Origin: Promethearchaeota archaeon
Lineage (GTDB): Archaea > Asgardarchaeota > Odinarchaeia > Odinarchaeales > JBHLKK01
DNA length: 14,684 nt
Reading direction: 5' to 3'
Assembly (NCBI GenBank): GCA_048939465.1
Contig: JBHLPL010000002.1
Coordinates: 37,708 to 52,391, forward strand
Shown piece after piece: positions 1,333-9,341 of this stretch. Numbering within the stretch: the stretch's first letter is position 1; the number at the start of each line of letters is the position of its first letter. The position numbers were made by a program, and so were the translations under genes. The notes beneath the pieces were generated by a model. It searched no databases. It was not told where the DNA came from and worked only from the letters and a program-made list of their open reading frames with translations.

Positions 1333-1389
1333 TTTTTGAGAACGTTGATATACGTAGTTTTGAAAGTTTTTGTGGCGCGGGGAACGGGA

Positions 1390-1414
1390 ATCTCGTGAGA
1401 GTTGTGGCCCTCAA
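1390..1414 (-). other. 25-nt non-canonical tRNA intron at position 59/60 (T-loop)
   Basis: BHB: central helix TTCG(54-57)/CGAG, bulges AA|T and AT|T, intron helix TGAGGG/CTCTCA with a 6-nt loop. Removal restores the TTCGAAT T-loop. Confidence 0.88.
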
Positions 1415-1449
1415 TTCGAACCCGTGCGACTCAAACTGAGTCACAGGCT

Positions 1450-1465
1450 TAATGGTTTTTCAAAT
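1450..1465 (-). other. 16-nt canonical tRNA intron at position 37/38
   Basis: Intron ATTTGAAAAACCATTA. Relaxed BHB: central helix TTGG/CCAT (one U-U mismatch), bulges AG|A and TA|A, short TTT/AAA intron helix. Confidence 0.85.
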
Positions 1466-1544
1466 CTCCAAGCCTGCGCCGTAACCACTTGGCTACCCCC
1501 GCCGCTCAGAATTCTCGATAGTCTCATAATAATCCATAGATTAT

Positions 1545-5041: not shown

Positions 5042-6457
5042 CTAAGTTGATCTTCCCAATATTTGAGCTAGGGCACCAGCCTGCTCTTCGGCAATGGTAC
5101 GCAGGTACTGAAATGCAATACCTACTGTTAACAGTACCCCCATTCCAGTCCCGAGAGCACCGAGAAAATCTGCAAACACGGTTAGGAGTCCTACGAACAT
5201 GCCACCAAGTATAGTAACCGTCGGTATGTAACGGCTTAGAACCTTTTCATAGATTACAGGAGATCGTCTGTAGCCAGGTATCTGCAATTCAGAACTCAAT
5301 AACTGTTGAGCTACGTCTCTTGAAGTGATTCCAGAGACTTCTACCCATATCACCGCTAAACCAGCACAAAGCAACACGAATATACCGAGATATATGAAGG
5401 CATGAAGCGGATCAGCAGTGACACTGTTTGCTCCGATCAAACCACGCGGAGGCGTCAAATAATATACGAATCCACCTGTTGGAACTACTTGTCCTTCAGC
5501 TGTTGTCCTAAACGTTCCAAATAGGTTAAGCCACACATTGTTATTGTCGGGGTTGAAGGCAGACCAGACTCCTTGGGAAACGAGTAGAACATTTGAATAG
5601 ACTGCCTGTACAAGGATGACCGGAATGTTGGAAACGTATAGAAATCTAATCGGGTAACGACCTGCGTAACCTCTATAACGCGCTAGCTTCAAAGGGATTT
5701 CTACACGTACAGTCTCGAAGTAAACAACCAGAACCACGACCAGTACGGTGGCAAGAAATCCTATTATATCAGGAGAATTTTGACGGTATATGGCTCCCAG
5801 GGGATTGCCAGCGATTACTGATTGGACGAGGGCCAGGACTGCGCCACGATAGAAACCGTCAGCCTCCAATACCGGGGAGAACATGTTCCAAAAGATTTGG
5901 CTTGTGACGCCAGCCATTATGAAGAGACTTACTCCGCTTCCAAGACCCCATCCCTTTTGTAGCATCTCATCCAGCAATATGATTATTATTCCGGCAAAGA
6001 ATAACTGAAGAAAAACACCAACTGCCAATTCAAATGTTAATGCACCATAAGCACCAAAACCTATGTAGGCAACTGCCTGAAATCCAGTCATTATTATTGC
6101 CAAAACCTTTTGAGTACCTGTGAATAGCGCTCGATCTACAGGGTCTGCGAAGTTTACCTGAATTATCTTAGATCCAGCGAGTATCTGCAGAATCAATCCA
6201 GCAGTTACTATAGGCATGATTCCCAATTCAACGAGAGAACCTCTGGTCGATGCAAAAAGCACTCGCCACCAATAAAGATAATCAAGACCACCCCCCCTTT
6301 CAACGCCCCAGAGGGGTATATTTGACATTATAAGATAGATTAGCAGCACTAGGAGAGTCCAGAAAAGCTTTCTTCCAAATGTGACTTTCTTTTCAGGCGG
6401 CTTCACCTCTGGCATTATCCGTATCAGTGGTGTGAACACACGAAGGAACCGTCCCAT
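5042..6457 (-). CDS. secY: Preprotein translocase SecY/Sec61alpha
   Basis: Multi-pass hydrophobic protein of 471 aa with ELGIMPIVTAGLILQ, KGWGLGSGVSLFI, YPIRFLYVSNIP and GTGMGVLL motifs. Confidence 0.98.
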   Translation of the reverse strand: MGRFLRVFTPLIRIMPEVKPPEKKVTFGRKLFWTLLVLLIYLIMSNIPLWGVERGGGLDYLYWWRVLFASTRGSLVELGIMPIVTAGLILQILAGSKIIQVNFADPVDRALFTGTQKVLAIIMTGFQAVAYIGFGAYGALTFELAVGVFLQLFFAGIIIILLDEMLQKGWGLGSGVSLFIMAGVTSQIFWNMFSPVLEADGFYRGAVLALVQSVIAGNPLGAIYRQNSPDIIGFLATVLVVVLVVYFETVRVEIPLKLARYRGYAGRYPIRFLYVSNIPVILVQAVYSNVLLVSQGVWSAFNPDNNNVWLNLFGTFRTTAEGQVVPTGGFVYYLTPPRGLIGANSVTADPLHAFIYLGIFVLLCAGLAVIWVEVSGITSRDVAQQLLSSELQIPGYRRSPVIYEKVLSRYIPTVTILGGMFVGLLTVFADFLGALGTGMGVLLTVGIAFQYLRTIAEEQAGALAQILGRST

Positions 6458-6496
6458 TGTTAGACCCTACCGTTTTTGGCTCTCTTATTAGAGATA

Positions 6497-6508
6497 ATTA
6501 TTAAAAAA
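6497..6508 (-). promoter_or_regulatory. T-run / TATA-like element (TTTTTTAATAAT) immediately after the rpl15 stop; possible terminator or internal secY promoter
   Basis: AT-rich element in the 53-nt rpl15-secY spacer, about 40 nt upstream of the secY ATG. Role ambiguous. Confidence 0.3.
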
Positions 6509-6510
6509 CC

Positions 6511-6954
6511 TTATGTGTCTTGGATTATCTTACCCCCAGCCGCCTCCATCTTTTTCGAGACAAGTTTACTAAACTTGGATACTGTAACAACCAAAGGCCG
6601 CGTTATCATCCCATCTCCCAGGAGTTTATCGTAGCCAAGCTCTGTCAAATTCACAAATATCTCTTTCTCCTTCTTCTCGGCTGCTTTTTCCTCAAGCAAG
6701 TTGTCTATCATCTGATCGAGTTGCTTCAGATTTATCGTTTTTGGTTTCTTAATCAAACAAGGAGGTCTTTTAAAACCATGTTTGCCAAAATAATTTGGCA
6801 TGTAGCGCAGTATATACGATTTACCGTGTTTTTTCCTGCCAGCTGCCCCTTTCCCACCGCGTTTTCCTGCTTTCCTGTGCTGACCCACACGACCGTAGCC
6901 GTGCGTTCTTGAACCTCGCCTCTTATGTGTCTTCTTAGCAAAATGGATGGTCAA
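6511..6954 (-). CDS. rpl15: 50S ribosomal protein uL15
   Basis: RGSRTHGYG, RGGKGAAG, YFGKHGF, INL..LD and KLLGDG motifs. TTG start with GGGTGA SD. Confidence 0.95.
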   Translation of the reverse strand: MTIHFAKKTHKRRGSRTHGYGRVGQHRKAGKRGGKGAAGRKKHGKSYILRYMPNYFGKHGFKRPPCLIKKPKTINLKQLDQMIDNLLEEKAAEKKEKEIFVNLTELGYDKLLGDGMITRPLVVTVSKFSKLVSKKMEAAGGKIIQDT

Positions 6955-6983
6955 TTTTTGTCACCCAGTTATTGGCTTCCAGA

Positions 6984-7559
6984 TTATTCCACGTCGATTT
7001 TCGTACCCTCTTCTCCTTTTTCCACTTTTTCGAACTCAACTTCAAGGACGCCGTTCTTGTATATTGCCTTTGACGACTGAGGAAGGACTTCTACATGTAG
7101 ATCAACCTTTTTGTAATACTTCCTTTCGGGCGTTTCTGCAGATATCGTTACTGAGTCTTCAGTTGCTTTGAGCTGGATATCTTTCTTTTCTACACCAGGC
7201 ATTTCGGCTACGATGACTATTTTGTCTTTTTCATCTATGACTTCGACGAGCGGTTCTCTGTCTTCTCGAACCATGGCCCCTCTCATGCTTGGTTCTACGT
7301 TCCCAAACTCACGGACCATTGGCTTCTTGTCAGGTCCTACCGTAACAGAAAATCCCCAGACAAACGGCCCTCTTTTCTCCATTTTACCGGGTAATCGCAT
7401 ACCCTTTATCAGATCTTCAATCATTTCTTCCAGTTTTGGAAACTGGAACATCCGTTCACCAAACATCTTGAAGATATCATCAAAGGATTCGATATCCCCA
7501 AACCATGGGTCTCTTTCCCACCACGGTAGTTTTTTCTTCTTCTTGTCATCACGAGACAA
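6984..7559 (-). CDS. Small heat-shock protein (archaeal Hsp20 / alpha-crystallin domain)
   Basis: GPFVWGFSVTVGPD.KP.VREFGN segment typical of archaeal Hsp20. ACD motifs PLVEV, AEMPGVEKKDI and YKNGVLEV; C-terminal IXI-like IDV. TTG start with a G6 SD-like run. Confidence 0.93.
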   Translation of the reverse strand: MSRDDKKKKKLPWWERDPWFGDIESFDDIFKMFGERMFQFPKLEEMIEDLIKGMRLPGKMEKRGPFVWGFSVTVGPDKKPMVREFGNVEPSMRGAMVREDREPLVEVIDEKDKIVIVAEMPGVEKKDIQLKATEDSVTISAETPERKYYKKVDLHVEVLPQSSKAIYKNGVLEVEFEKVEKGEEGTKIDVE

Positions 7560-7606
7560 TCGAGCAAACCCCCCTTATTTTTCTGATAATCATTGGAAAC
7601 TACAGC

Positions 7607-7625
7607 TATAATTAAAGGTTGCTTT
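7607..7625 (-). promoter_or_regulatory. Candidate internal promoter for hsp20 (TTTAATTATA at 7616-7607, with A-rich upstream element)
   Basis: TATA-like box in the 66-nt rpl30-hsp20 spacer, about 48 nt upstream of the TTG. Confidence 0.5.
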
Positions 7626-8114
7626 TTAAATCATTCTTTCTAGTAGAAGATTGATCCTTGAACCCCGATATCCTAACTCTCCGCCAACTGAGAAAGCTCT
7701 TTTCTTTTTCCCCTCAAAGCCTTTTTTTGGCGGATGAAGACGAAAGACTGGTTTAAGACTGGGGAGGTCTTTAATCTCCACCTTGAATTCAATTAGTGAT
7801 TTTGAAAAATCTTCAATTGATTTGAATGTCGAGTTCTGTCTGACATAATCATCGGTTACGGGTTTGTTGCCAGTTAAGCGTCCTCTTTTTCTTATGAGTT
7901 CAGAGAGAGTCGGCGCATCTATTTCACCCCATGTAATGTAATCTTTTGCTTTCTGTAGCATTCGCTTGTATGACGAGCGGTCATCTATTACCACCGCATG
8001 ATTGGGTTTGTGAAGTCGCAGTATTCTCAGTGTATCCTCAACCTCCTTCCGAACATCGACAGTCCCACGAATACGTATCACGCTAAGTTTTTTCGTTCTC
8101 TCGATTTTTGGCAT
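7626..8114 (-). CDS. rpl30: 50S ribosomal protein uL30 (long archaeal form)
   Basis: VIRIRG, TL..LRL.K.NHAV, ITWGE, PVFRLHPPKKG and GELGYRG motifs. Confidence 0.96.
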   Translation of the reverse strand: MPKIERTKKLSVIRIRGTVDVRKEVEDTLRILRLHKPNHAVVIDDRSSYKRMLQKAKDYITWGEIDAPTLSELIRKRGRLTGNKPVTDDYVRQNSTFKSIEDFSKSLIEFKVEIKDLPSLKPVFRLHPPKKGFEGKKKRAFSVGGELGYRGSRINLLLERMI

Positions 8115-8738
8115 CTAGACCCTCTCCCAGTCCGCTGGTGTCATTATTCGATATGTCTGCCTTAAGGCATTCAGAGCGGCTTTGGCAAAATTCACCGTTG
8201 TTCTTGTGTGTCCTCTTGTGTTAGACCAAACGTCACTGATACCAGCCAATCTAAGAACCGTTCTCACATAACCTGCAGCTGCCAGTCCCGTACCTTTAGG
8301 CGCAGGTAGTAATTCTACTCTGACACTTCCTGCCTTTCCAGAAACTCTAAATGGTACTGTGTGTGGATGACCGCAGTCACATTGCCAACTACCACATCCT
8401 CGTCTAACGGGTATTATGTTTAATTTTGCGTGGGATATGGCAGCTCTAATGGCCGGTCCCGTTTCTCTTAGCTTTATTTCCCCAATTCCAACATATCCAT
8501 TTGAGTTTCCTACGATTACAGTTGCTTTGAATCTTGATTGTCTTCCCGCATCTGTTTGTCTCTGAACGAGATTAACATCAATTACTTCTTCTTCAAGATT
8601 CGGCAGAAGTATATCCACTATTTCAGGTTCTCTTATCGGAAGATTCAATTTGAAGATTTCATCTATAGTTGTTATGCGACCTTCCTTTACCAGAGCGCCC
8701 ATCTTCGTTTTTGGAACCCAATCATCAAGAGAAGACAT
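8115..8738 (-). CDS. rps5: 30S ribosomal protein uS5
   Basis: [26 protein letters not shown] and PAPKGTGL motifs. Confidence 0.97.
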
Positions 8739-8741
8739 GTG

Positions 8742-9341
8742 TTACTTTCCCCCGAAACTGTCGATCATGTTTTTCTTAATCTTGTCAAAATGTTCAGGAA
8801 AATCCCTCGGATCTAGTCCTCTTTTTATTATTCTGGAAAACTGTTTATTGAATAGGCGAGAATCCTCACTCGCTAGTTTCTTTGCGTATTCTGCAATATG
8901 CTTTCCTCTTATACGATCTTCGGAAGGAAGAACTTCTTCACTGTGCGGAACGTCAAGTCCTGCATCAAGCGCGCCTTTGAGGGCGGCAAAAACACGAGAT
9001 CCTTTGGTTGGGGGTATCAGTCCAATATCTAATACCGCATGTTTAATTCGCTTCTTGGTAGCCCGTAAAGCCAGTAGATATGCTGTTAGATAGGCAGCAG
9101 AGAGGTTTCCTACGCCGGCCAACCAGCCGTATTCTTTTTTCAACTCCCCGGAAAACGCTGAGATTAGGGTCTTATCCCCTTTGACTTTTGCATCACATAT
9201 TTGAGTTATTATATAGTTTAGAGTCTTTCGGACAACCAGTCTCGGCCCACGAGAAGCCAGTAATTTCTTTCTAAGATAATAATTCGTCTTCCCCGTTCTA
9301 TGTCTTCTGAACAGTACTCTGTATTGAGCGCTTTTTGCCAT
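8742..9341 (-). CDS. rpl18: 50S ribosomal protein uL18
   Basis: FRR.R.GKTNY..R, PRLVVR, AAYLT, LDIGL and VFAALKGALDAGL motifs. ATG 9341 preferred for SD spacing; ATG 9350 is the alternative. Confidence 0.95.
   Translation of the reverse strand: MAKSAQYRVLFRRHRTGKTNYYLRKKLLASRGPRLVVRKTLNYIITQICDAKVKGDKTLISAFSGELKKEYGWLAGVGNLSAAYLTAYLLALRATKKRIKHAVLDIGLIPPTKGSRVFAALKGALDAGLDVPHSEEVLPSEDRIRGKHIAEYAKKLASEDSRLFNKQFSRIIKRGLDPRDFPEHFDKIKKNMIDSFGGK

Follow-up and report, generated by a model that had tools for sequence, protein, structure and literature searches.

An intact gene for an archaeal small heat-shock protein (sHSP) of the Hsp20 family is located between the ribosomal protein genes uL30 and uL15 in a 14,684-nt stretch of DNA (the window), and the same sHSP ortholog occupies this one slot of a highly conserved operon in six Asgard families and in part of the Bathyarchaeia. 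According to the sequence comparisons, the order uL30-hsp20-uL15 is most likely inherited and lineage-wide, and not the result of a recent insertion, a recent horizontal transfer or an assembly error. We consider it likely that hsp20 encodes a general holdase in this inherited arrangement, which would be transcribed both from an own promoter and by read-through of the operon, together with uL15.

The window covers an archaeal S10/spc-type ribosomal protein cluster of an Asgard archaeon with all genes on the minus strand, in the order L29, RNase P p29, S17, L14, L24, S4e, L5, S14, S8, L6, L32e, L19e, L18, S5, L30, Hsp20, L15, SecY, Adk, EMC3/DUF106 protein, L34e, Cmk, L14e, Cbf5, S13, and S4. 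The genes around hsp20 are the following:

7626..8114, minus strand: uL30 (L30p/L7e), directly upstream of hsp20; Pfam PF00327, E 3.4e-13
7626-7628, minus strand: stop codon TAA of uL30
6984..7559, minus strand: hsp20, 191 aa, TTG start; NF041800, 180.3 bits
6511..6954, minus strand: uL15, TTG start; Pfam PF00828, E 1.7e-15
5042..6457, minus strand: SecY; Pfam PF00344, E 2.1e-64

The TTG start of uL15 is identical in a sister species. In another part of the cluster, the 281-nt gap between Cbf5 and S13 contains a probable class II tRNA (1373-1502, minus strand) with a long variable arm and an encoded CCA, which can be read as Ser-GGA or Leu-GAG depending on the intron borders; apparently two introns are present, one of ~16 nt in the anticodon loop and one of ~23 nt in the T-arm. 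This candidate was missed by ARAGORN and Rfam, and neither Rfam nor tRNA scans yielded a hit in the window or in an insertion in the sister species G002 (see below).

The identity of the gene is clear. The open reading frame and the Pfam and NCBIfam profiles agree with the sequence-only reading of this DNA, which had described an intact 191-aa Hsp20 gene co-oriented with and lying between uL30 and uL15. The match to Pfam PF00011 (HSP20) is modest (31.2 bits at a gathering score of 20.8, residues 107-190), while NCBIfam NF041800 ("archaeal heat shock protein Hsp20") is matched over profile positions 3-162 of 162, with a score above the equivalog cut-off of 140 bits for the whole protein. The alpha-crystallin domain of a Sulfolobus Hsp20-family protein (PDB 4RZK) matches residues 96-178 with E 6.3e-19. 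The protein can be divided as follows:

Residues 1-95: N-terminal region, rich in W and F (alignment with orthologs)
Residues 96-178: alpha-crystallin domain (PDB 4RZK match and ortholog alignment)
Residues 179-191: C-terminal extension (ortholog alignment)
Residues 188-190 (6990..6998, minus strand): I-D-V, the I-x-I/V motif of small heat-shock proteins

Orthologs of the same genus speak for the TTG start, as they align from residue 1 with 89-92% identity and one of them has ATG at this position. I188-D189-V190 is part of an 18-residue tail after the last strand; in small heat-shock proteins the C-terminal I-x-I/V serves as oligomerisation motif. By these sequence features, the Hsp20 of the window has all hallmarks of a general holdase, and the gene would encode a canonical, ATP-independent holdase of the Sulfolobus Hsp20 type. 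In the genome of the window (G000), a single Hsp20 match was obtained at E < 1e-15, and the embedded hsp20 is the only one above the NF041800 cut-off. A divergent Hsp20-like paralog of 179 aa on contig C1 (L006:1075-1614, plus strand) scores 85 bits, below the cut-off, and has a shortened alpha-crystallin domain without I-x-I tail. Judged by these scores, the embedded hsp20 is the resident ortholog and not an extra foreign copy.

Both junctions of hsp20 are real, as they are spanned by independent contigs of X3 and X7. Positions 6000-8800 lie on a single 12.4-kb contig of run X3 (three differences), and both junctions are also bridged by contigs of X7 (6865-7145, 7143-7626, and 7597-8041). Near-identical DNA is present in mangrove and sediment metagenomes from several studies. 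Because independent mangrove assemblies bridge both junctions and the gene order recurs in many genomes, an assembly chimera was ruled out. The composition of hsp20 is native: GC, GC3 (0.45), and codon usage (r 0.69) resemble those of the neighbouring genes, and no anomaly in these measures relative to the neighbours was found. It had been stated before that no transposase, inverted repeats or target duplication are apparent, and both the ORF search and the flank-repeat search bear this out: no transposase ORF was found in the window, no terminal inverted repeats or target duplication were found at hsp20, and direct or inverted repeats flanking the gene were only matches of chance size. A recent mobile-element insertion, which lacks transposase, terminal inverted repeats, and target duplication here, was ruled out as well.

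The spacers on either side of hsp20 measure exactly 66 nt (from the uL30 stop) and 29 nt (to the uL15 start), as had been read from the sequence before. Together with the spacer following uL15, they contain these elements:

7560..7625, minus strand: uL30-hsp20 spacer, 66 nt, no run of four or more T
7607..7616, minus strand: TATA-like TTTAATTATA, candidate internal hsp20 promoter, starting 10 nt after the uL30 stop
7569..7574, minus strand: Shine-Dalgarno-like GGGGGG, 9 nt before the TTG of hsp20, read from the sequence
6955..6983, minus strand: hsp20-uL15 spacer, 29 nt, only a Shine-Dalgarno-like GGGTGA
6458..6510, minus strand: uL15-SecY spacer, a T6 run with TATA-like TTTTAATA directly behind it

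Archaeal terminators are marked by oligo-T runs of four or more T. On the coding strand, no such run was found in either of the spacers flanking hsp20, and since no terminator signal precedes hsp20, read-through from the upstream ribosomal protein genes would provide a first input to its expression. A second input would come from an own TATA-type promoter right after the uL30 stop. Three species of the genus share the first ~20 nt of the 66-nt spacer and the AGTTTCC block after it without any difference, whereas their flanking coding DNA is ~80% identical. The spacers of the core from L29 to Adk contain only two TATA-like motifs; one of these, the TTTAATTATA box, is kept in L008 and L009 of the same genus (three species in total), and the G-run before the hsp20 start is kept in both sister species. 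As this TATA-like box is conserved in the 66-nt spacer, hsp20 probably has an own promoter in this genus besides read-through. With either input, uL15 would be on the same RNA as hsp20, and the T6 run and the second TATA-like box would then divide uL15 from SecY. The uL15-SecY spacer possibly holds a terminator or attenuator and a SecY promoter, and thereby a transcription boundary between the two genes. The outcome would be a basal, growth-coupled supply of the sHSP with possible stress induction. The promoter and the co-transcription are what we infer from the spacers, and the holdase activity from the protein family.

The earlier argument that any transcript reaching uL15 must traverse hsp20 fits the sequence, as the Shine-Dalgarno-like GGGTGA is the only element of the 29-nt spacer and neither a TATA-like box nor an oligo-T run was found there. 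The proposal derived from it, expression of the chaperone along with the ribosomal proteins, stands as far as read-through is concerned; the idea of pure co-expression has to be modified in view of the conserved TATA-like box, a candidate promoter of hsp20 itself.

Regulatory motifs near this box were also inspected. Downstream of TTTAATTATA, TGAT-A-ATCA / ATAATTAT forms a weak, imperfect palindrome at best. Thermosome genes of G000 carry TTTATATA boxes, and the regions upstream of this genome's thermosome, CDC48, and further alpha-crystallin genes revealed no operator motif shared with hsp20. A scan for promoters and terminators of the bacterial type gave counts at the level of shuffled sequence, with models that are bacterial and a host that is archaeal. 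Conservation of the TATA-like box extends to no more than three close species and might instead reflect a constraint on an RNA element, although folding of the spacer gave no support for this. As a special case, the spacer could act as an RNA thermometer, the fold of which hides the Shine-Dalgarno sequence at low temperature while the heat-shock gene rides on a constitutive operon transcript. We regard this as extremely improbable: the minimum-energy fold pairs the conserved 5′ block of the spacer with the Shine-Dalgarno G-run, but its stability does not exceed that of shuffled sequence (z −0.40), and the consensus fold of the three species is weak (−7 kcal/mol) and has no compensatory change. 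With stability at shuffle level and no covariation, an RNA thermometer in the 66-nt spacer was rejected.

For analysis of the distribution, L18, S5, L30, Hsp20, L15, SecY, and Adk of the window were compared with fetched loci by tblastn, and the uL30-Hsp20-uL15 adjacency in Asgard archaea was sampled family by family out of 400 genomes. The arrangement is conserved; it was found in the following six families:

f1 (own genus of the window): 3 of 3 loci
f2 (taken to be Odin): 4 of 4
f6 (taken to be Thor): all 15 genomes sampled
f12: 8 of 8
f19: 2 of 2
f26: 1, with uL30 inverted

Family f1 is that of the window, and f2 belongs to the same order, with four genomes of 1.3-1.4 Mb of which one is closed (1.4 Mb). 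All embedded Asgard hsp20 genes are intact open reading frames of 176-194 aa. The embedded copies score 170 bits (f2), 155 bits (f6), and 161 bits (f12) against NF041800, and 122 bits in f19, which is below the cut-off. The uL30-hsp20 spacer comprises 1-35 nt with a Shine-Dalgarno sequence in f2 (16-23 nt), f6 (about 1-23 nt), and f12; at this length, read-through is the simplest source of transcripts. As such spacers are too short for a promoter, expression by two inputs may apply only to the genus of the window and to the Bathyarchaeia.

Nine Asgard families (f3, f4, f5, f7, f8, f10, f13, f15, and f16) have no embedded gene. Their gap between uL30 and uL15 is 5-59 nt (13 of 15 loci have 5-37 nt, a further one 59 nt), usually with a Shine-Dalgarno-like and without a TATA-like motif. 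As the junction is tight and without TATA in these nine families, a pre-existing operon boundary between uL30 and uL15 was ruled out for Asgard archaea. Where the arrangement is lacking, the Hsp20 ortholog adjoins a thermosome gene in five families and the gene of a CDC48-type AAA+ ATPase in nine; these copies carry a TATA box with a palindrome behind it. The CDC48 and thermosome genes of G000 are located on contigs other than that of hsp20.

Several further features were observed at the fetched loci. In L074 (f26), uL30 lies alone on the opposite strand beside the embedded hsp20, and in G010 (f6; L090/L114), SecY is inverted relative to uL15 near the embedded hsp20. In the sister species G002, an interspersed repeat of ~300 nt (L008:1175-1495) is located between hsp20 and uL15, where the spacer is 329 nt long. 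This repeat family has at least 20 near-full-length copies in G000 (72-85% identity; for example C66:3253-3554, C38:1581-1877, and C69:24354-24645), and is also present in G002 (~10 copies) and G001 (several). It is either MITE-like or made up of small RNA genes, and Rfam gave no hit for it. The SecY proteins of f7 (L122, L123), f12 (L058-L060), and f19 (L091, L126) have 500-565 aa, with an insertion of ~60-100 residues between the parts aligning to ~1-213 and ~220/305-463 of the window SecY. In f16, the SecY gene (L104, L107) contains one in-frame TAG in both genomes of the genus, which could be recoding or a shared break.

A part of these data would also fit an hsp20 gene that merely sits at a permissive junction, is transcribed separately from its own promoter and has no functional tie to its neighbours. 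The TATA-like box directly after the uL30 stop, here and in the embedded Bathyarchaeia loci, points in this direction, as do the inverted uL30 of f26, the spacers of 144 nt and 200 nt in f19, and the repeat in G002, by which the junction evidently tolerates extra DNA. We nevertheless judge such a passive role to be quite improbable. The arrangement persists with intact frames in six Asgard families and part of the Bathyarchaeia, separate control would not fit into the short spacers of f2, f6, and f12, neither side of hsp20 has an oligo-T terminator, and the 29-nt spacer offers no promoter-like motif for uL15.

Outside the Asgard archaea, the Hsp20 match immediately precedes that of uL15 within one contig in 11 of the 151 Bathyarchaeia genomes sampled; in a twelfth, Hsp20 is upstream of uL15 across a contig break. 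Fetched loci confirm the order uL30-Hsp20-uL15-SecY with intact reading frames. The embedded copies keep the I-x-I tail, and their uL30-hsp20 spacer of ~51-57 nt contains TTTAAA or TTTATA at a distance of 7-11 nt from the uL30 stop. In L133 (Bathyarchaeia G408), an inverted repeat, CTTGC-ATAGAC-GCAAG, comes after TTTAAA immediately before the embedded hsp20; it resembles an operator that covers the predicted start site. Three genomes with embedded hsp20 also have a second, non-embedded paralog of a distinct clade, and the embedded Bathyarchaeia copies group apart from the main Bathyarchaeia Hsp20 clade in the tree. The identities of L15, L30, and SecY of Bathyarchaeia to those of the window are the same with or without embedded hsp20. 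A prior report of uL30-Hsp20-uL15 in Bathyarchaeia was not found in the literature searched.

The Hsp20 and SecY trees agree at the level of family and order, joining f1 with f2 and f6 with f12; in the SecY tree, the pair of f1 and f2 is fully supported. In the free Hsp20 tree, the embedded copies fall into three to four groups, with three to four changes of the embedded state and poorly resolved deep nodes. Inheritance from a single event is for this reason no more than a possibility. A single clade of all embedded Asgard copies was not rejected by the AU test (p 0.28); the monophyletic operon-embedded clade proposed for phylogenetic testing by the sequence-only reading is absent from the free trees and at the same time compatible with the constrained comparison.

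Against this inherited order stands the possibility, put forward for Thor and Odin by Tirumalai et al. (2023; PMC10833476), that the cluster recently took up a foreign Hsp20 by horizontal transfer. The embedded Bathyarchaeia copies are located on the Asgard-rich side of the tree, away from the non-embedded Bathyarchaeia clade, and copies of the Asgard families f7 and f13 are nested among those of Bathyarchaeia. As the copies of both groups are interleaved, some transfer between these sediment phyla is plausible. A recent acquisition is nonetheless very unlikely in our view: composition and codon usage of hsp20 are native, it is the sole copy above the family cut-off in G000, the Hsp20 tree mirrors the SecY tree at the family and order level, and no traces of mobile elements were found. 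Any transfer would have to be ancient. The sequence data do not favour the transfer suggested in PMC10833476 as a recent event.

The embedded proteins differ in their C-terminus. The copies of f6 (11 of 11), f12 (8 of 8), f19, and f26 end 6-7 residues past the last strand without I-x-I (loci L059, L065, L091, and L074 are among them). The embedded copies of f1 and f2 have a tail of 18-19 residues with the motif, like nearly all non-embedded copies. In f19, the tail-less embedded copy occurs together with canonical tailed copies elsewhere in the genome. This loss in Thor-like, f12, f19, and f26 copies hints at specialisation and could speak for a dedicated chaperone of translation and the translocon. 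Such an Hsp20 would act on orphan ribosomal proteins, nascent chains or SecY substrates, its dose would have to track uL15, SecY, and the ribosome, and the slot would be under selection. Translation-related proteins are common clients of small heat-shock proteins in vivo. The occupation of the slot in two archaeal phyla, the flanking ribosomal protein genes of Bathyarchaeia that are without sign of transfer, and the tight spacers in f2, f6, and f12 would agree with this role. However, the argument is one of gene context, the protein of the window is a full canonical sHSP with no distinguishing feature, and nine Asgard families do without the arrangement and have the ortholog beside CDC48 or thermosome genes. 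We therefore think a dedicated role unlikely. That the slot is conserved over long evolutionary distances, or repeatedly used, would agree with selection for expressing hsp20 together with uL15, SecY or the ribosome, and also with a permissive junction.

A broader and still doubtful extension is that the slot between uL30 and uL15 holds a specialised, operon-type Hsp20 which selection retained, or brought there more than once, beside uL15 and SecY in two phyla, where read-through would couple its dose and a private promoter would add stress induction. If this were true, the tail-less Thor-like forms would be a derived, non-oligomerising variant devoted to that role. The occurrence in several lineages provides a natural comparative system to ask whether archaeal relatives of eukaryotes have chaperone dose wired to the production of ribosome and translocon, and by what means a stress gene is regulated inside a growth-rate-regulated operon. 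This wider pattern may outweigh the window itself in value.

Compared with known systems, the protein is closest to the Sulfolobus-type Hsp20 (NF041800, 4RZK), with which it shares the orthologous family by score, ~50% identity over the alpha-crystallin domain, the GP..WG.S....GPD.KP..(E)FGN block, and the C-terminal I-x-I/V, whereas the genomic context differs. Characterised crenarchaeal hsp20 genes are known as stand-alone stress genes. The hsp20 copies of other Asgard families in CDC48 or thermosome context belong to the same protein family, but the gene of the window neighbours uL30 and uL15, and in contrast to their TATA box with palindrome its motif after the TATA-like box is an imperfect palindrome at best. 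The chaperone-context copies are comparable to the Phr regulon of Thermococcales, in which a TATA box is followed by a palindromic operator shared with chaperone genes. The Bathyarchaeia loci resemble the window in slot, orientation, kept tail, and the TATA-like box after the uL30 stop, but belong to another phylum in which only 11-12 of 151 sampled genomes have the arrangement.

The closest precedent are the Thor and Odin clusters. Tirumalai et al. (Archaea 2023:5512414, PMC10833476) described an HSP20/COG0071 gene added to the S10-spc cluster in Thorarchaeota bin8, bin27, FW25, and BC and in Odinarchaeote LCB4; they suggested horizontal transfer and gave no position, phylogeny or regulation. 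The sequence-only reading, which did not recall any description of the arrangement, is thus corrected on this point, and with this report and the order in six Asgard families and Bathyarchaeia the arrangement is both common and documented in the lineage. As in the window, the Hsp20 gene of these Asgard archaea is co-oriented inside the S10-spc cluster, and in f2 and f6, taken to be Odin and Thor, its position is between uL30 and uL15. The window differs in belonging to family f1 from mangrove and sediment and in its 66-nt spacer with TATA-like box versus 16-23 nt (f2) and about 1-23 nt (f6), and its Hsp20 keeps the I-x-V tail, whereas Thor-like copies are without it. The window is one more lineage with an arrangement already reported for Odin- and Thorarchaeota, to which the present analysis makes modest additions, namely the distribution across phyla, the contrast to the CDC48 and thermosome contexts, the loss of the tail in some lineages, and the conserved box in the spacer.
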